In this document: positions 10,464 to 55,488 of the stretch, piece after piece
Position numbering within the stretch: the stretch's first letter is position 1
Layout of the letters: the number at the start of each line of letters is the position of its first letter
Assembly: GCA_963741665.1 (NCBI GenBank)
Contig: CAVUIM010000003.1
Coordinates: 48,710-112,709 of the forward strand
Source: an uncultured Acidobacteriota bacterium
GTDB lineage: Bacteria; Acidobacteriota; Vicinamibacteria; Vicinamibacterales; UBA2999
Length of the DNA: 64,000 nt
Direction: 5' to 3'
The notes under the pieces: model-generated
The model's input: the letters and a program-made list of their open reading frames with translations, nothing else
Database searches by the model: none
Told to the model about the DNA's origin: nothing
Program-made: the position numbers and the translations under genes

Positions 10464-11936
10464 GTGGCTCTCGACACCAGACGCGCCCGCCGGCATCTAA
10501 TCGCCGCCGATCCGGTGATGGCCGATCTCATCCGCCGCGGCGGCCCGTGCCGCCTCGGCGCCAGCCGCGGCGACGACCCGTTCTTTCTGCTGCTGCGGGC
10601 CATCGTGTCGCAGCAGCTGTCGACCAAGGCCGCCGCGACCATCTTCGGCCGGTTGTGTGCGCTCTTCCCCGGCGAGGCGCCGACGCCGTCACGCCTGCTG
10701 GCGCTCGACGAGGCCACGCTGCGCGGGGTCGGCCTCAGCACCAACAAGACCCGGTTCGTGCGCGACCTGGCCGCGCGGGTCCGCGACGGCCGCCTCGACC
10801 TGGCCGCGCTCGACGCCCGCGACGACGCCACCGCGCTCGAGGCGCTGACCGCGGTGCTCGGCATCGGCACGTGGACGGCGGAGATCTTCCTGCTGTTCCA
10901 GCTCCACCGGCCGGACATCTTCCCGGTCGGTGACCTGGGCCTGCTCACGGCGATGCAGCGGCAGTACCGCATGCGCAGCCGGCCCTCGCCGGCCCGGGCG
11001 TTGAAGGTGGCCGAGGCGTGGCGTCCCCACCGCTCGGTGGCCGCTTGGTACCTGTGGCGTAGCCTGGAGATTCTGATCGGGGTCCCGAGCCCCGCCCCGT
11101 TACTTGATCGACGCCGTCAGCGTGACCGAGGCGCGGATCACCGCCTCGCCGGCGGCAATCGGCGGTGGGGGCGGCGCGGCGGCGATCGAATCGGCGGCCA
11201 TCCGCATCATCGGCTGTTCGATCGGCCGGCTGATGACGCCGTCTTCCTCGATCCGCACGACCGCGACCACGGTCGCACCGGCGCCCTCGGCGGCCGCCGC
11301 GGCCTTGGCCCGGGCATCGGCCACGGCCCGGGTGATCGCCTGGCGTTCGAGCCGGGTGCGCTCCTTCAGGTCGAAGCGCACGCCCTGCACCGACGTGCCG
11401 CCGGCGCTGATGCCGATCTCGAGCAGCTCGCCGACCCGCGTCACCGGCTCGACCCGCACCTCGATGACGTTGCGGGCCAGGAACCCGCGCGGCACCTGCT
11501 TGCCGTTGGTGTAGTCGAACTGCGGCTGCAGATCGTAGCTGAGCGTGCGGATGGCGTCCTTGGCCAGCCCGGCCGCGGTCAGTCGCTGCTGCACCGCGGT
11601 CATCGCCGTGGCGCCCTGCGCCTGCGCGTCCCGGGCGGTGGCGCCGCGGTGCTCGGTGGCGAGGGTGACGAACGCCACGTCGGGCTGCGCGCGCACTTCC
11701 CCTTCCCCGCGCACCACCACCACGGGCGGCCCCGGCGCGGCGGTCTGCGCGCCCGCCACGACGGCGCCGGCCAGCACGAACAACGACGACAGCATCACTC
11801 GAACCCCTCTCAGAAACCCCGGCGTCGCACCGAGGGCGGGGCGGCGCCCGGATCGCCAGGCGCGACGACTGAGGATATGGCGGATATCCGAAGGAGGAGC
11901 AACGCCGCGAGCCGGGGCCCCCGCGACGCGTGGTGA
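10464..11936 (+). CDS. alkA: DNA-3-methyladenine glycosylase II (AlkA-like, HhH-GPD); the ORF lacks an in-frame stop after the conserved domain
   Basis: The first ~203 aa have HhH-GPD features: IVSQQLSTKAA, LGIGTWTAEIFLLF, FPVGDLGL and WYLWRS. After about 11070 the frame runs 860 nt antisense through the SIMPL gene as Arg/Gly/His junk. A TGA sits at 11074-11076 in the +1 frame. Confidence 0.7.
   Translation: MALDTRRARRHLIAADPVMADLIRRGGPCRLGASRGDDPFFLLLRAIVSQQLSTKAAATIFGRLCALFPGEAPTPSRLLALDEATLRGVGLSTNKTRFVRDLAARVRDGRLDLAALDARDDATALEALTAVLGIGTWTAEIFLLFQLHRPDIFPVGDLGLLTAMQRQYRMRSRPSPARALKVAEAWRPHRSVAAWYLWRSLEILIGVPSPAPLLDRRRQRDRGADHRLAGGNRRWGRRGGDRIGGHPHHRLFDRPADDAVFLDPHDRDHGRTGALGGRRGLGPGIGHGPGDRLAFEPGALLQVEAHALHRRAAGADADLEQLADPRHRLDPHLDDVAGQEPARHLLAVGVVELRLQIVAERADGVLGQPGRGQSLLHRGHRRGALRLRVPGGGAAVLGGEGDERHVGLRAHFPFPAHHHHGRPRRGGLRARHDGAGQHEQRRQHHSNPSQKPRRRTEGGAAPGSPGATTEDMADIRRRSNAASRGPRDAW
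11100..11795 (-). CDS. SIMPL-domain (DUF541) periplasmic protein
   Basis: 231 aa from the ATG whose complement is at 11793-11795. It has a signal peptide (MLSSLFVLAGAVVAGAQT). The layout GEGEVRAQPDVAFV...QPQFDY...FLARNVIEVRV...RFDL is typical of SIMPL/DUF541. Confidence 0.7.
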   Translation of the reverse strand: MLSSLFVLAGAVVAGAQTAAPGPPVVVVRGEGEVRAQPDVAFVTLATEHRGATARDAQAQGATAMTAVQQRLTAAGLAKDAIRTLSYDLQPQFDYTNGKQVPRGFLARNVIEVRVEPVTRVGELLEIGISAGGTSVQGVRFDLKERTRLERQAITRAVADARAKAAAAAEGAGATVVAVVRIEEDGVISRPIEQPMMRMAADSIAAAPPPPPIAAGEAVIRASVTLTASIK

Positions 11937-12007
11937 GCGTCGTGGGGTGGGACGCGGGATGCCGCGCCGGCCGAATGCCGGCGGGGTTTCTGAGATGGGT
12001 TCCAAGA

Positions 12008-12841
<834 letters not shown>

Positions 12842-16331: not shown

Positions 16332-16760
16332 ATGGACATCGCCCTCATCCGCAAGTCGCTCCTCCAGGCCGTCGACGCGGCCAAGCGGGACGCCGTCGAG
16401 CGCCGCGCCCGCACCGACGAAGCAACCAAGCGCTACGAGAAGTTCCTGGAAGAGACGGCGACGCCGGCGTTCCGGTCGATGGCGTCGGCGCTGCGCGGCG
16501 AAGGGCTGCTCTTCGAGGTGATCACCCCGTTGGGCGGGGTCCGCCTGGTGCCCGAGCGAACCCGCGAGGACGGCATCGAGCTGACGCTCGACAGCACCGT
16601 CGATCCGCCGCAGCCGGTCATCCGGGTGATGCGCTCGCGCGGCAGCCGGGTGAACCAGCACGAGCGCCCGGTGGCCGGCGCGCTGCGCCTCGAAGGCCTC
16701 ACCGACGAGCACGTCGTGACGGCGCTGCTGGAAGAGCTGCGTCCCTGGCTCGAAAGATAG
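16332..16760 (+). CDS. hypothetical protein
   Basis: 142 aa from ATG 16332. Its composition looks like that of the recognisable genes around it, judged by eye. No motif recognised. It ends in a TAG that is fused to the heptamer repeat. Confidence 0.5.
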   Translation: MDIALIRKSLLQAVDAAKRDAVERRARTDEATKRYEKFLEETATPAFRSMASALRGEGLLFEVITPLGGVRLVPERTREDGIELTLDSTVDPPQPVIRVMRSRGSRVNQHERPVAGALRLEGLTDEHVVTALLEELRPWLER

Positions 16761-16880
16761 GGAACAGGGAACGGGGAACGGGGAGCAAGAACCTCTGACG
16801 AACTAGCGCCCGTCCGACAATGACGACAGCGTGGTAGCGGGACGCTCGCGCTTTCCCTGTTCCCTGTTCCCTGTTCCCTA
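16758..16880. repeat. inverted pair of TAG-anchored (GGGAACA)n heptamer arrays between convergent genes
   Basis: Left arm: TAGGGAACAGGGAACGGGGAACGGGG at 16758-16783. Right arm: CCCTGTTCCCTGTTCCCTGTTCCCTA at 16855-16880, which reads TAGGGAACAGGGAACAGGGAACAGGG on the minus strand. Each arm begins in the TAG stop of the gene it follows. The arms are mutually complementary and separated by about 70 nt. Confidence 0.85.
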
Positions 16881-19493
16881 CGCAAGTCTTTCTACAAAAG
16901 ACGTATCGATGCCCTCGCGGCGCAGCAGCCCGAGCAGCCCGACCTTGTCGTCGGCCTTGCGATAGGCCTCGCGGACGTCGACCGCGCCGCTCTGCACGAA
17001 CGCGACGAGCGCGTCGTTGAGCGGCGCCATCCCCAGCTTGCGGCCGCTGTCGATGGCCCGCGGCAGCTGGGCGATCTGCCCGTCGCTGACCAGCGCGGCG
17101 ACGGCGTTGGTGTTGAGGACCAGCTCGCGCGCGGCGAGGCGGCCGCCGCCGGCCTTGCGCAGCAGTACCTGAGCGACGACGCCGCGCAGATGCTCGGCCA
17201 GCGCGGCGCGTACGGTGCGGCGCTGTTCCGACGGACAGAGGTCGACCAGGCGCTCGAGGGCGGCAGTGGCCGACGCAGCGGTGACCGAGGCGAACACCAG
17301 CAGACCCGATCCGGCGGCGTCGAGCGCCACCTGCAGCACGTCGGGCGAACGCAGGTCCTCGATGATGAGGACGTCGGGGTTCTCGCGCAGCGCGGCGCGG
17401 GCCGCCGCCACCACTTCCGAGGCGCTGCCGCGCAGTTCGCGCTGGCTGATGAGCGATCCGCGGCTCTCGTGCACCAGGCGGATCTGGCCTTCGAGCGTGA
17501 TCACGTAGTCGTTACGCTGGCGGTTGATGAGGTCGACGTAGGCCGATACCAGCGTGGACTTGCCGCTGGCGCGCGGCCCGGTCACGATCACCAGCCCCTC
17601 GGGCTCCATCGCCAGCGCCTGGATCTCGCGCACCAGGCCGAGCTGCTCGGCTGAGGTGGCACGGGCCGAGATCATCCGCAGCAGCGCGCCGGGACCACGA
17701 TAGTCGCGGAAGGTCGTGATGCGGACACGGCCGACGTCCTGCAGGTCGCGGATCCACTCGGCGCTTTCCTTGTCGCGGGCCCCTTCGGGCGCCAGCTCGA
17801 GCACCGCCGCTTCGACGTCGCCGCTCGACAACGTGGCTTCGCCTTCGAGCAGGCGGATGTCGCCGTCGACGCGCACGGCGGGCCGGGCCTGCGTCGTGAG
17901 ATAGAGCGCCGAGGCGCCGCGCGCCGCGGCCAGACGCAGTAGCCGTTCGATGCCGCCGCCGCGGCCGTGGCCACGCGACGACTGGCTCGGGGCTCGCGCT
18001 GAATCGCGGGTCAGCGACAGCACGACGCCGGGCAGGGCGTCTGACGTGGCCTCGCCACGCGCCGCCACGGCGGCGTCGACCTCGTAGGACGGCGGCAGAC
18101 CTGGCAACGTGGGCTGCGGTTCGATCGGCCGGTAGACAGGTGGCTCGGACACGGTGGGCTCGACGGGCGGCATCGGCGCGCGGGGGGAGGCCGCGGCGGC
18201 CGGCACGTCGTATCGGGGGGCGTAGGGTTCGACCGCCGGGGCCTGGGGCGGCGCGGGCGTGGACTCGGGAACCAACGGCACGTTCGGCATTGTCGCCCAC
18301 GCGGGGGGCGCTGGTGCCGCCGGCGCTGCAGGCACGGGCGGTGGCGGCGCCACCGGGGCTGCCACGGCGGCCGGAATGAACTCGGGGACGGCGGTTTCGA
18401 CCGGCGCGGTGACGGGCTCCGGCGCGGGCGCGGGACTGATCGCGGGAGCAGCCTCCGCCTCGGCGTCCTGGCCGACGGGTTCCGGCAGCGGCTCCACCGG
18501 CGGCACGACGGCGGCGAGGATCGCGGCCTCGAACGAGGCCGGCGCGGCGGTCACGACCGACACGTCGACCGTGAACTCCAGCGGCGGCACGGCGCCGGTC
18601 TCGCCCAGCGTCTGCTCGAAGTCGATCGCCGGCACGTGCTCGATGGCCCACGCGTCGGCGATGCTGACCTCGGGTTCGAGCTCCACGACGGGCGGCGCGG
18701 CGTCGGCCACCGGCGATTCGTCGGGCGCCGCAATCGGTGCCGCCTCGATGGCCGGCGCCTCGACGAATGCGGGTTCAGCGAACGGCACCGGCTGGTCGGC
18801 CATCGTGACCGGCTCCACCGGCAGCGCGGCAGCGATCTCCAGCTCGGGTTCGACGACGACAGGTTCGACGACGACAGGTTCGACGACGGCAGGTTCGACG
18901 ACGACAGCTTCAACGACGACCGCTTCGACGACGACAGCTTCGACGACCGGCGCCTCGACGTCGTCGACCGGCGGCACGTCGACGGTCACCGCTGCGGCGG
19001 CGTCTTCGTTTGAGGCCGGCGCGGCGACGAGGTCGACGGCGGCGGCCGGCGCCACCGCCTCGGCGACCGGGACCTCGGCGACGAGCTCGGCGGCCGGCGC
19101 GGCGGCGACCGATTCGGCCGCCAACGGCGTGGCCGCATCGGCCGGCGCGTCGAGCACCGCGGCGGTCGCCGGGCGCACGCGGCGATGCCGGCGCACTTCA
19201 ATCCAGATGTCGTCGCCGCCGCGGGCCGCGACGACCGTGAACCGATCGGCGCCGCCGGCCGCGCTGGCCGCCAGCTCGTGTTCGACGGCGCCCATCTCGC
19301 GCAGGCCGCGCAGCGCCTCGGCCGACAGCAGCTGCGCGAGCAGCCCCTCCATCGCGCCGAGGCCGAGGCCCTGCCGCGACAGCTCCACCGTGCCGGTGGC
19401 TGCGACCACGTAGGGTTTCTCCCCCACGTGCAGCACCAGGGCATCGCCGTCACTGCGGACGATGGCGGTCAGGAGCGAATCGACGAGCGGCAT
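16878..19493 (-). CDS. PilT/GspE-family ATPase with duplicated PilT-N domain and a ~400-aa Pro/Ala/Val/Glu-rich linker
   Basis: The C-terminal ~350 aa carry Walker A GPRASGKST, Walker B-like DVLIIEDLR and PilT-like tail motifs. The first ~115 aa resemble a second PilT N-terminal domain. The middle is low complexity with VVVEA/VVVEP repeats. The ATG whose complement is at 19491-19493 is preferred over the GTG at 19529. Confidence 0.7.
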   Translation of the reverse strand: MPLVDSLLTAIVRSDGDALVLHVGEKPYVVAATGTVELSRQGLGLGAMEGLLAQLLSAEALRGLREMGAVEHELAASAAGGADRFTVVAARGGDDIWIEVRRHRRVRPATAAVLDAPADAATPLAAESVAAAPAAELVAEVPVAEAVAPAAAVDLVAAPASNEDAAAAVTVDVPPVDDVEAPVVEAVVVEAVVVEAVVVEPAVVEPVVVEPVVVEPELEIAAALPVEPVTMADQPVPFAEPAFVEAPAIEAAPIAAPDESPVADAAPPVVELEPEVSIADAWAIEHVPAIDFEQTLGETGAVPPLEFTVDVSVVTAAPASFEAAILAAVVPPVEPLPEPVGQDAEAEAAPAISPAPAPEPVTAPVETAVPEFIPAAVAAPVAPPPPVPAAPAAPAPPAWATMPNVPLVPESTPAPPQAPAVEPYAPRYDVPAAAASPRAPMPPVEPTVSEPPVYRPIEPQPTLPGLPPSYEVDAAVAARGEATSDALPGVVLSLTRDSARAPSQSSRGHGRGGGIERLLRLAAARGASALYLTTQARPAVRVDGDIRLLEGEATLSSGDVEAAVLELAPEGARDKESAEWIRDLQDVGRVRITTFRDYRGPGALLRMISARATSAEQLGLVREIQALAMEPEGLVIVTGPRASGKSTLVSAYVDLINRQRNDYVITLEGQIRLVHESRGSLISQRELRGSASEVVAAARAALRENPDVLIIEDLRSPDVLQVALDAAGSGLLVFASVTAASATAALERLVDLCPSEQRRTVRAALAEHLRGVVAQVLLRKAGGGRLAARELVLNTNAVAALVSDGQIAQLPRAIDSGRKLGMAPLNDALVAFVQSGAVDVREAYRKADDKVGLLGLLRREGIDTSFVERLA
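18847..18966. repeat. 15-nt tandem repeat (about 8 units, GGTTCGACGACGACA) inside the PilT-like gene
   Basis: The first two units and the fourth (18847-18861, 18862-18876, 18892-18906) are identical; the third (18877-18891) differs at one position. The later units are degenerate. The repeat encodes the (V/A)VVE(P/A) pentapeptide repeats on the minus strand. Confidence 0.85.
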
Positions 19494-19609
19494 CAGTATG
19501 GCAATCGGTCGGGTTGCCCGGGGGTGCACTCTCCCTCACGGGAAGCCCAGACCCAACCGTCCTGCATTGGAGTTTCGGACCCTCGGCACGTCAACGATAG
19601 CGACGATCG

Positions 19610-54078: not shown

Positions 54079-54173
54079 CCCTGTTCCCTGTTCCCTGTTC
54101 CCTGTTCCCTGTTCCCTGTTCCCTGTTCCCTGTTCCCTGTTCCCTGTTCCCTGTTCCCTGTTCCCTGTTCCCT
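54079..54173. repeat. 13.5 perfect tandem copies of the heptamer CCCTGTT (GGGAACA on the sense strand of both flanking genes)
   Basis: Units start every 7 nt from 54079 to 54163, with a partial unit running into the TAG stop (complement of 54172-54174) of the M24 peptidase gene. The array ends 6 nt from the regulator ATG (54072). I counted it directly from the sequence. Confidence 0.95.
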
Positions 54174-55488
54174 ACTTGATCACGAGCAACCGGTAATTGG
54201 CGGAGTGAACGAACTGAATCCCGTGCTCCATCAGCATCGCGTCGTCCTCGATCGGGATGCGCAGCTTCTTGCCGCCCCACTCGGGGATCGGGGTGTAGGC
54301 GAAGTACTCGAACGAGAACAGGTGCTGCTGGTAGAGCGTGAACGTGCTCTGGAACGGCTGCCACGTGGTGAGCGACGGGCCGATGTCGTGGCCGGTGTTG
54401 CCCACCGGGTGGAAGCCGTAGGTGACGTCGGTCTTGTCGTCGGCGTTGGGCTTGTTGAACTCGATCACCCCGTACCCGGCGGCGCGCAGCGCCGCGTCCA
54501 TGGCCGCCATCGTCTCCTTGCCGGTGCGGCCGGCCTTGATCGCCGGCTTGATGACGTCGCGGGCGGCGATCGCCTTGGCGAAGGCGGTGCGGATGCTGGC
54601 CGGCGGCTGGGTCTCGCCCGGTTTCAGCACGTAGGCGACGCGCTTGACGTCGGTGCCGAAGTTCATCAGCTGCACGCCCCAGTCGATCATCATCACGTCG
54701 CCGGGCTGCACGATCCGATCGGTGGACGTGGCGACGATGCCTTCAGGGCCGGTCACGTAGACCGACGGCATGTCGAACTCCGAGCCCAGGCCGCGGGCCA
54801 GCAGCTGGTCCTGCAGCCACCACGCCGCGTCCTCGAGCGTGGTCTTGCCCGGCGTGATCACTTCGTTCGAGAGCGCCCGTTCGGCCAGCTGGATGGCGAT
54901 GCCGGCGGCCTCGCCGAAGGCGACGATCTCGGACGCGACGCGGCGCGAGCGGAACTCGGACACCAGCCGCTCGGCGCTGGCCAGACGCGACGCGTACGGC
55001 TCGCCCAGGGTCTTGAGGAGCCGCTGGTGCATCGTCACCGACAGGCCGTCGGCCGGACCGATCTCCTCCGACATGTTGACGCCGATGCGTTTAGGGTCGC
55101 GGGCCTTGACCTCTTTGGCGAGATCGTCGGCCGAGCCGTACTTGTCGTAGGCGCCCGACTGGTTCAGCAGATAGCCGGAGGGCCCGAGCGCCAGCCGCTC
55201 GACGCGGTCGCCCTTCAGGAAGAACGCGTAGTAGCCGACGCCGGTGACGTAGCCGCGGCCCAGGTCCTCCCACAGCGGGTCGTAGTGGTTCTCCTTCACG
55301 GCGACGATCCAGGCGTCGAGGCCGGCGTTCTTCATCGCCACCGGCAGCACCTGCTCGAACTTGTCGAGCCGGATCTGACGCTGCATCTCCCACCGCCGTC
55401 GCGCTTCTTGCGCTTCGCCGCTCCCGGCCAGGAGCATCACCATCACCATCACCATCGCCACCGCCGCCGTCACCCGCCCACTCGTCAT
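54172..55488 (-). CDS. M24-family Xaa-Pro aminopeptidase-like protein, secreted
   Basis: 438 aa from the ATG whose complement is at 55486-55488. The signal peptide contains VAMVMVMVMLLAG. The C-terminal pita-bread region has DVMMIDWGV, HPVGNTGHDIGP and IEDDAML. Confidence 0.7.
   Translation of the reverse strand: MTSGRVTAAVAMVMVMVMLLAGSGEAQEARRRWEMQRQIRLDKFEQVLPVAMKNAGLDAWIVAVKENHYDPLWEDLGRGYVTGVGYYAFFLKGDRVERLALGPSGYLLNQSGAYDKYGSADDLAKEVKARDPKRIGVNMSEEIGPADGLSVTMHQRLLKTLGEPYASRLASAERLVSEFRSRRVASEIVAFGEAAGIAIQLAERALSNEVITPGKTTLEDAAWWLQDQLLARGLGSEFDMPSVYVTGPEGIVATSTDRIVQPGDVMMIDWGVQLMNFGTDVKRVAYVLKPGETQPPASIRTAFAKAIAARDVIKPAIKAGRTGKETMAAMDAALRAAGYGVIEFNKPNADDKTDVTYGFHPVGNTGHDIGPSLTTWQPFQSTFTLYQQHLFSFEYFAYTPIPEWGGKKLRIPIEDDAMLMEHGIQFVHSANYRLLVIK

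Follow-up and report, generated by a model that had tools for sequence, protein, structure and literature searches.

We analysed a window of 64 kb (the whole 64,000-nucleotide stretch of contig CAVUIM010000003.1; GC content 70.7%) from the genome of an uncultured soil Vicinamibacterales bacterium (Acidobacteriota) and, within it, a pair of short repeat arrays that lies between two convergent genes at 16.8 kb. The plus-strand gene, found in the list of open reading frames (ORFs) at 16332–16760 with its TAG stop codon at 16758–16760, encodes a conserved hypothetical protein of 142 amino acids (aa). This protein has no Pfam match; its 135 homologs, nearly all of them 142 aa long, are annotated as Vicinamibacterales or other Acidobacteriota. 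The minus-strand gene, listed at 16878–19529 with a TAG stop codon at 16880–16878, encodes a PilT-like type II/IV secretion ATPase, which contains a T2SSE domain (Pfam PF00437, E = 1.8e-22) and has a long N-terminal half rich in Ala, Pro and Val. With high confidence, two short G-rich heptanucleotide microsatellites, arranged as a convergent inverted pair, occupy the space between these genes.

Each arm of the pair is fused to a stop codon. The 142-aa gene ends CTC GAA AGA TAG and runs directly into GGAACAGGGAACGGGGAACGGGGA, with the array reaching position 16784, and the PilT-like gene, read on its own strand, ends CTT GCG TAG and runs into GGAACAGGGAACAGGGAACAGGGAA. The left arm (16758–16784, plus strand) comprises TAG followed by GGAACAG, GGAACGG, GGAACGG and GGA, and the right arm (16854–16880, minus strand) comprises TAG followed by three copies of GGAACAG and then GGGA. 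Both are built from the unit GGGAACR at a period of 7 nucleotides (nt) with about 3.8 units (3.7 and 3.9 copies, respectively, in Tandem Repeats Finder), and both contain four G-tracts. The G-rich strand of the left arm is the sense strand of the 142-aa gene and that of the right arm is the sense strand of the PilT-like gene; because the two genes converge, the arrays are reverse complements of one another. Together they form an inverted repeat with 27-nt arms that are 93% complementary, lie 69 nt apart and include both stop codons, and this is the top inverted repeat of the 64 kb when length and complementarity are combined. The spacer of 68–69 nt (16785–16853, with no strand assigned) is specific to the locus and contains a small internal stem when folded. 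An earlier, sequence-only reading of this DNA had described the fusion of both arms to TAG, the four G-tracts in each and the complementarity of the arms across about 70 nt, all of which are borne out by the coordinates and the sequence.

A third array, of 13.6 perfect GGGAACA units, lies on the minus strand at 54079–54174 including the stop codon, after the TAG (54174–54172) of an M24 peptidase gene. The array proper, as delimited by Tandem Repeats Finder, occupies 54079–54173 and begins TAGGGAACAG past the peptidase TAG, which agrees with an earlier observation that a single decamer starts all three arrays. Three arrays were found in the window in all, with Tandem Repeats Finder matches of 94–100%, and every one overlaps a TAG by its last one or two bases on the sense strand. 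The heptamer GGGAACR occurs 33 times in the window compared with 17.3 ± 4.1 times in shuffled sequence (none of 100 shuffles reached 33), and 19 of the 33 occurrences fall within the three arrays.

The 54-kb array stops 7 nt short of the ATG (54072–54070) of a co-oriented winged-helix regulator gene. Separating the peptidase stop codon from the regulator start codon, it could allow the downstream regulator to be tuned by the number of units. The array is also open and in frame with the regulator ATG, giving 33 sense codons that read (GTGNREQ)n and then GTGPP, such that read-through of the peptidase TAG would fuse the peptidase to the regulator; the prior chance of being in frame is one in three, and a change of one unit would break the frame. 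The same peptidase-regulator junction differs among relatives. In locus L154 (8374–8377) it is a 4-nt GTGA overlap of stop and start codons, and in L149 (6121–6238) it is TGA plus a 118-nt inverted pair of GGGTCTC/GGGGCCC-type heptamers that ends 4 nt before the ATG and places its C-rich strand in the mRNA just ahead of the start codon of the next gene. In L151 (2555–2578) the junction is TAG plus a GGGAAC-type array, although this comprises the last 21 nt of a contig with 2.4x coverage and is suggestive only. The peptidase proteins of L149 and L151 are identical and their genes have 3 differences in 1308 nt, and the two sequences part at the second base of the stop codon.

Arrays of this kind are known as G-rich heptameric simple sequence repeats (SSRs) in Xanthomonas (GGGAATC) and Nostoc PCC 7120 (GGGGAYT) (Rehm et al., 2015, PLoS One 10:e0144275; PMC4692102). 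About 185 arrays per genome were described; in Xanthomonas the mode is four units (28 nt), and each genome has 70–75 convergent inverted pairs, invariably with one array per strand, and spacers of 28–83 nt, for example between groES and groEL; the coding strand carries the G-rich strand 0–50 bp past the stop codon, overlaps with the stop included. The Xanthomonas and Nostoc repeats are strongly intergenic, reach about 14–26 units and differ in length among relatives. In vitro they adopt G-quadruplexes, preferentially with K+, and transcript starts or stops fall at quadruplex-capable repeats more often than at controls (Rehm et al., 2015). The window arrays likewise consist of a tandem 7-nt unit with a tract of three to four G residues, and in all three the coding strand carries the G-rich sequence at a stop codon, in keeping with the published range of 0–50 bp or overlap. 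Both arms at 16.8 kb have about the preferred four units (the third array is a long one, of a kind that makes up a minority in Xanthomonas), and they form a convergent inverted pair with a short spacer (69 nt, against 28–83 nt in Xanthomonas). On these sequence characters, the 16.8-kb pair belongs to the Xanthomonas/Nostoc class. It differs in its unit, GGGAACA/G, and in its acidobacterial host of 71% GC; in addition, the unit is kept at orthologous sites in two Xanthomonas species, whereas three units, one of them incapable of forming a G-quadruplex, occur here among relatives that are 83–92% identical in the flanking gene. A start at an in-frame TAG is not reported for the Xanthomonas SSRs, for which the supplement lists arrays without flanks. 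A full-text literature search for (GGGAACA)n in any rotation found no bacterial paper in the library searched, and Rfam, searched across the whole window at gathering thresholds, returned no family. Phase-variable SSRs are defined by a position in an ORF or promoter; the 16.8-kb pair sits 3' of both genes, and an effect on frame or promoter is therefore unlikely.

Two other groups of intergenic heptamer arrays are comparable in part. The cyanobacterial short tandemly repeated repetitive (STRR) heptamers of Calothrix and Anabaena (cited by Rehm et al. as ref. 39 of PMC4692102) are dispersed tandem heptanucleotide arrays in intergenic DNA. Their hosts are AT-rich, their unit families are many, and both stop-codon placement and inverted pairing fall outside the definition. 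The classical unit (CCCCAGT, STRR1) also forms arrays in contigs with close PilT-like homologs. These arrays, with 4.6 or 5.6 copies and with unit variants that vary by strain, lie about 147 nt downstream of the PilT-like gene (L126, 2468–2505; L130, 3880–3910; L131, L132, L145 and L146), the homologs encoded there having 93–94% amino-acid identity to that of the window. The TAACTGA direct repeats of Beggiatoaceae, cyanobacteria and Bacteroidetes (MacGregor, 2015; PMC4679880) resemble the window arrays in having one heptamer in tandem at many intergenic sites, a patchy distribution across phyla and stop-codon triplets within the repeat, but they mostly lie a few nt upstream of start codons, are AT-rich and not G-rich, and are hardly ever inverted (one indirect repeat in 170). 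For these arrays in Beggiatoaceae and cyanobacteria, the post-transcriptional regulators S1, Csp and CsrA have been proposed as partners (MacGregor, 2015).

The sequence-only reading also held that a read-through transcript from either side could form a long hairpin, and folding predicts this on both strands. The 156-nt region gives −79.6 kcal/mol on the plus strand (z = −7.45) and −71.6 kcal/mol on the minus strand (z = −5.35), with no shuffled sequence equalling either value. The predicted stem is about 27–33 bp on both strands and closes an internally structured loop of 68 nt. Two A-to-G differences in the plus-strand arm are read as G-U pairs in the plus transcript and as A-C mismatches in the minus transcript. 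In the folds an outer helix, formed between GAAAGA at the end of the 142-aa gene (16752–16757, plus strand; Glu-Arg codons with the rare AGA) and TCTTTC within the end of the PilT-like gene (16887–16892 in plus-strand terms), carries the predicted stem into both coding regions. TCTTTC is also the sole U-rich stretch after the hairpin on the plus transcript. Relatives have CGC or CGA for the Arg codon that is AGA in the 142-aa gene of the window, and both convergent genes use GAA AGA near their ends. The model thus places a GC-rich stem-loop directly past the gene end, as in an intrinsic terminator. Consensus intrinsic terminator-like matches are at chance level across 60 kb of the window, which makes another kind of 3' structure plausible. 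A consensus promoter scan found nothing at the 16.8-kb locus.

We then compared the site with its orthologs in relatives, which were retrieved by exact-protein look-ups and one metagenome scan and are drawn from the matches listed. Relatedness is taken from a neighbour-joining tree of the 142-aa gene only, and identities are nucleotide identities of that gene to the window; identity over the C-terminal part of the PilT-like gene was rejected as a measure, being saturated at 87–92% (nucleotide) while the 142-aa gene spans 70–92%. At 92% identity, L120 has TAG-CGGCTCAGGATCC(GGGGCTC)3 and then the contig end, and L159 has TAG(CGGCTAG)4 with an inverted (CGGCTAG)3 after the PilT-like gene, which is a pair of the unit GGCTAGC. 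L124 (87%) has an inverted pair of the same GGCTAGC unit, L160 (86%) a degenerate GGGAACA-type arm and at least four units of CCCTGTT, and L123 (83%) a GGGGCTC/GGGACTC pair consisting of TAG-GGGCTCGGGACTCGGGGCTC... and an inverted GGGGCTCGGGACTCGGG. Both genes of L133 (85%; 940–1040) end in TGA and are separated by two GGGGCCTGGCCCC palindromes without heptamers. A single GGCTAGC array is present in L125 (77%), TAGGGGCTCGCCCTA alone lies between the stops in L134 (72%), and L129 (70%) has (GGGAACA)4.7 on one side and a lone GGGAAC on the other. In more distant orthologs the stop codons almost abut and there are no arrays.

The same intergenic site in close relatives therefore holds three unrelated units, GGGAACA, GGGGCTC and GGCTAGC. 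In the tree, the window (GGGAACA), L120 (GGGGCTC) and L159 (GGCTAGC) are nearest neighbours, and each unit type is found at three scattered places. The arms match each other in every locus that has a pair, and the paired loci are predicted to form hairpins (z = −4.6 for L123, −5.0 for L124 and −4.8 for L159), as are the paired palindromes of L133 (z = −3.9). Arm lengths and spacers differ in L129, L134 and L160, and the CCCCAGT arrays vary in copy number from strain to strain; such variation in arms, spacers and copy numbers fits the rapid turnover of a microsatellite. The spacers of L123 and L124 are similar (p<0.002) and those of the window and L124 marginally so (p=0.036), while the unrelated L149 pair has a spacer that resembles none of those at this site. 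The spacers are thus orthologous and unlike one from another locus, which suggests that the arms change in place around a locus-specific spacer. Across the sequences compared, the recurring property of the orthologous pairs is the predicted hairpin and not a particular sequence or a G-quadruplex.

The orthologs also bear on the suggestion that the element inserts at a TAG stop codon or brings its own, for which the 142-aa gene offers no support. Every close ortholog of the protein terminates in ...PWLER, with arrays present or absent, and the 135 homologs keep a length of about 142 aa; among distant orthologs that lack arrays, the stop is TAG in L135, L136 and L138 and TAA in L139. The constant ...PWLER end and the TAG of array-less orthologs show that TAG at this gene predates the repeat, which neither brought the stop codon nor altered the end of the protein; the locus-specific spacer is likewise at odds with insertion. 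A crude call of stop usage in 31 long window ORFs with high GC at third codon positions gave 16 TGA, 11 TAG and 4 TAA. TAG is thus not rare, and two of the three arrays are halves of one palindrome, so that finding TAG at all three is weaker evidence than it looks.

Arrays in this lineage nevertheless tend to be associated with TAG, as seen in both arms, in the 54-kb array, in two arrays of L121 and in L151. At the ThiF gene of L121 (991–1029) the sequence TGA-CGC-TCG-TAG directly precedes GGGACC..., and the G of this in-frame TAG, two codons past the current stop in a tandem arrangement, is the first G of the array. A (CCGCTAG)4.7 array elsewhere in L121 (17620–17652) separates the convergent genes for QueC and DUF4097, and the QueC ORF as called ends at a TAG within it. 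GGCTAGC arrays hold TAG in every frame on both strands, and in L159 and L124 the stop codon and the TAGs of the TAGCGGC unit share the same phase. In the cross-phylum census (among the matches listed), TAG precedes 9 of the 18 arrays that lie within 10 nt of a stop codon, and outside the window a long-ORF TAG is fused to the array in only 3 of 126 cases. The base preceding an array is A in 81% of cases, this being the last base of the unit; one position further upstream, T is found in only about a third, chiefly in AT-rich cyanobacteria. An intrinsic TAGGG start of the arrays, considered as a candidate explanation, is unsupported by this census. In our reading, arrays extend to the last base left open by selection on the gene, the AG of TAG fitting the ...A|GGG junction between units, and a causal link between TAG and the arrays is conceivable.

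Placement was surveyed more widely by scanning one genome per species for (GGGAACA)3, which gave at least 119 loci. Among the matches listed, the hosts are mostly Cyanobacteria (Nostocales, Okeania, Coleofasciculus and similar), with others in Acidobacteriaceae, Gemmatimonadales, Longimicrobium, Phycisphaerae, Gammaproteobacteria, Clostridia, Bacteroidota and more. Within this set, the stop codon of a long ORF lies within 10 nt of the 5' end of the G-rich strand in 18 of 102 GGGAACA arrays, compared with 3 of 102 for the end of the C-rich strand. The same polarity is evident in inverted heptamer pairs, where the G-rich arm comes first in 11 of 12 across all fetched loci. One GGGCTCG-type pair, in a gammaproteobacterial metagenome-assembled genome (L119, 2531–2694), begins 6 nt past a tRNA-Gln gene, with a predicted stem that is almost perfect (z = −9.1); another pair, built from GGCGGAC, follows after 1 kb. 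A pair placed after a tRNA gene points to a role at the level of the transcript or DNA rather than in translation termination. The earlier proposal of a function tied to the end of translation or transcription is therefore plausible in its second part, as a role at the ends of transcripts or genes, and disfavoured in its first.

The reading that we favour, at about even confidence, is that the microsatellite arms form a rapidly evolving hairpin at the 3' end of each transcript, from which we infer a role in termination or stabilisation. A transcript passing either stop codon would contain a G-rich arm, the 68-nt spacer and a C-rich arm, and would fold into the stem of about 27–33 bp with both stop codons included in its base, providing a 3'-end structure common to both transcription units. 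Such a hairpin would act on RNA polymerase, by pausing or terminating it, or on 3'-to-5' exonucleases, by blocking them, and would stop each transcript from running antisense into the other gene. Replication slippage would build and remodel the arms, which may be kept alike by copying between them or by a genome-wide preference for one unit. By analogy, the element would work most plausibly like a bidirectional terminator or like the 'ribosome termination structures' that directly follow stop codons (Chemla et al., 2020; PMC7518266), with which its predicted fold shares a stable stem that starts from the stop codon, lies between convergent genes and is usable both ways. It differs from intrinsic terminators in having no U-tract, a 'loop' of 68 nt and a stem made of microsatellite, and in being passed over by the consensus scan.

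Several observations weigh against this reading. The sequences 3' of the stem (CCCUACGCAAGUCUUUC on the plus strand and CCCUAUCUUUCGAG on the minus strand) form no U-rich tract; no U-tract follows the stem on the plus transcript and there is only UAUCUUUC on the minus transcript, and the consensus terminator scan made no call at the 16.8-kb hairpin. The folds of L125, L129 and L134 are no better than those of shuffled sequence, and the long hairpin is thus not conserved in all orthologs. Single arrays, such as that of 13.6 units at 54 kb, follow the same placement rule though they are unable to form the hairpin, and placement may therefore be unrelated to hairpins. The matching of arms could also be explained by one preferred unit per genome, the window itself having GGGAACA at two unlinked loci. 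Finally, no regulatory role was found for the Xanthomonas repeats by the authors who described them (Rehm et al., 2015).

The main rival, and a serious one, is that the arrays are functionless by-products, in which slippage-grown heptamers persist where they are unconstrained and fill intergenic DNA up to the stop codon; the inverted pair would then reflect the acquisition by both convergent genes of the unit favoured in that genome. We consider this possible but on balance unlikely. It accounts readily for the extreme turnover, with three units among the closest relatives (92% nucleotide identity in the flanking gene) and arrays lost, reduced or single in L134, L125 and L133, and for the variation of the peptidase-regulator junction from the 4-nt GTGA overlap to the 118-nt heptamer pair and the 13.6 units of the window. 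The lack of a function found in Xanthomonas is also in its favour, as is the over-representation of heptamers being ascribed to polymerase slippage in work cited by Rehm et al. (2015). Slippage leaves unexplained, however, why the G-rich end lies at an ORF so much more often than the C-rich end (18 against 3 among the matches listed), why pairs are G-first in 11 cases against 1, why the same small set of units turns up at unlinked loci, in scattered strains and in different phyla, and why four units are the mode.

The remaining explanations are less likely than the by-product. In one of these, which we regard as improbable, a G-quadruplex in the RNA or in the non-template DNA strand would act in ribosome release, polymerase pausing or 3'-end protection. 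The emphasis that the sequence-only reading laid on quadruplexes is upheld in so far as each arm has exactly the four G-tracts required and ViennaRNA with quadruplex energies predicts one for a lone arm and three in the 54-kb array; related repeats with a four-unit mode form quadruplexes in vitro with K+ preferred (Rehm et al., 2015), and the G-first orientation would have the G-rich arm transcribed first. With both arms present, however, the predicted hairpin (−79.6 kcal/mol) wins outright over any quadruplex. Moreover, the GGCTAGC pairs of L124 and L159 have no tract of three G residues, and quadruplex potential is therefore not common to the orthologous pairs; in L149 it is the C-rich and not the G-rich strand that the mRNA carries before the next start codon.

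A bolder proposal, to which we attach a similarly low probability, is that a dedicated sequence-specific process (for example, templated repeat synthesis or site-specific cassette exchange) installs or exchanges arrays at ORF boundaries, using a small vocabulary of units (GGGAACA, GGGGCTC, GGCTAGC and GGGGACT), rewriting the last bases of the stop codon and leaving the G-rich strand pointing away from the ORF. If true, it would explain the three units at one site, the sharing of units by scattered strains and distant phyla, the divergence of L149 and L151 from the second base of the stop codon, and the G-first pairs.

A mobile or exchangeable cassette seems still less probable. Here the array would be carried by a miniature inverted-repeat transposable element (MITE) that targets TA, or by a site-specifically exchanged cassette, and the stop codon would be rewritten to TAG. 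For comparison, REP/REPIN elements and TA-targeting MITEs such as the Correia elements of Neisseria share with the pair a length of about 120 bp, inverted arms near 26 nt, TA at both ends, a position at the 3' ends of genes and hairpin formation upon transcription. The 16.8-kb pair does have TA...TA flanks and arms that resemble terminal inverted repeats, unit types are scattered on the flanking-gene tree, and GGCTAGC arrays carry TAG in all frames, one of them supplying the QueC stop codon in L121. The divergence of L149 and L151, with 3 differences in 1308 nt of gene and a complete difference from the second base of the stop codon, would also fit, although on the L151 side it is confined to the last 21 nt of the 2.4x-coverage contig. 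Set against this, TAG is ancestral at the 142-aa gene and the end of the protein constant, single arrays and asymmetric arms are unlike transposition products, and no empty single-TA site was seen in the relatives examined, where other arrays or a minimal palindrome occur instead. A Correia-like MITE was rejected for these ancestral stops and for the lack of a conserved core and of target duplication. REP/REPIN was rejected as well: the arms consist of heptamers in tandem instead of palindromic REP units, and the locus-specific spacer resembles orthologous spacers only and not that of the L149 pair.

The ACAGGGA of the array presumably resembles the ACARGGA core of the CsrA consensus obtained by systematic evolution of ligands by exponential enrichment. 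A binding-site array for a sequence-specific RNA- or DNA-binding protein such as a CsrA-like regulator, as the perfect repetition of one unit at two unlinked window loci and, by analogy, MacGregor's S1/Csp/CsrA proposal for TAACTGA arrays might suggest, is nonetheless very improbable, with unrelated units at the orthologous site in the closest relatives, such that the binder would have to switch in step, and with the motifs (AGGGA in every unit) predicted to be buried in the stable stem of the pair.

Two further repeats in the window were recorded. The longest inverted repeat (11801–12002; GAACCCCTCTCAGAAACCCCGGCG... / ...CGGCGGGGTTTCTGAGATGGGTTC) has 42-nt arms that are 76% complementary and 118 nt apart, and lies just downstream of a minus-strand gene ending at 12008. 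Within the N-terminal half of the PilT-like protein, a 15-nt tandem repeat of about seven copies (18847–18960) encodes VVEAV/VVEPV-type pentapeptides; this N-terminal repeat region appears highly variable, while the C-terminal ATPase domain is 93–98% identical in many relatives.

Relative to the literature consulted, the acidobacterial host and the GGGAACA unit are new, as are the change of unit type at a single orthologous site with preservation of matched arms, and the tendency of arrays to start with an in-frame TAG. In several phyla, G-rich heptamer repeats rank among the commonest unexplained intergenic features, ten years after they were described. The orthologs of the 16.8-kb pair constitute a natural experiment, in which a single site holds hairpin pairs made from three unrelated units, one of them unable to form a G-quadruplex; this argues that pairing or placement, and not quadruplex chemistry, is what the pairs have in common. 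The in-frame TAG start and the strict G-first orientation are simple rules, and two genes with one 120-bp element offer a compact, testable system for whether heptamer repeats mark the ends of transcripts.

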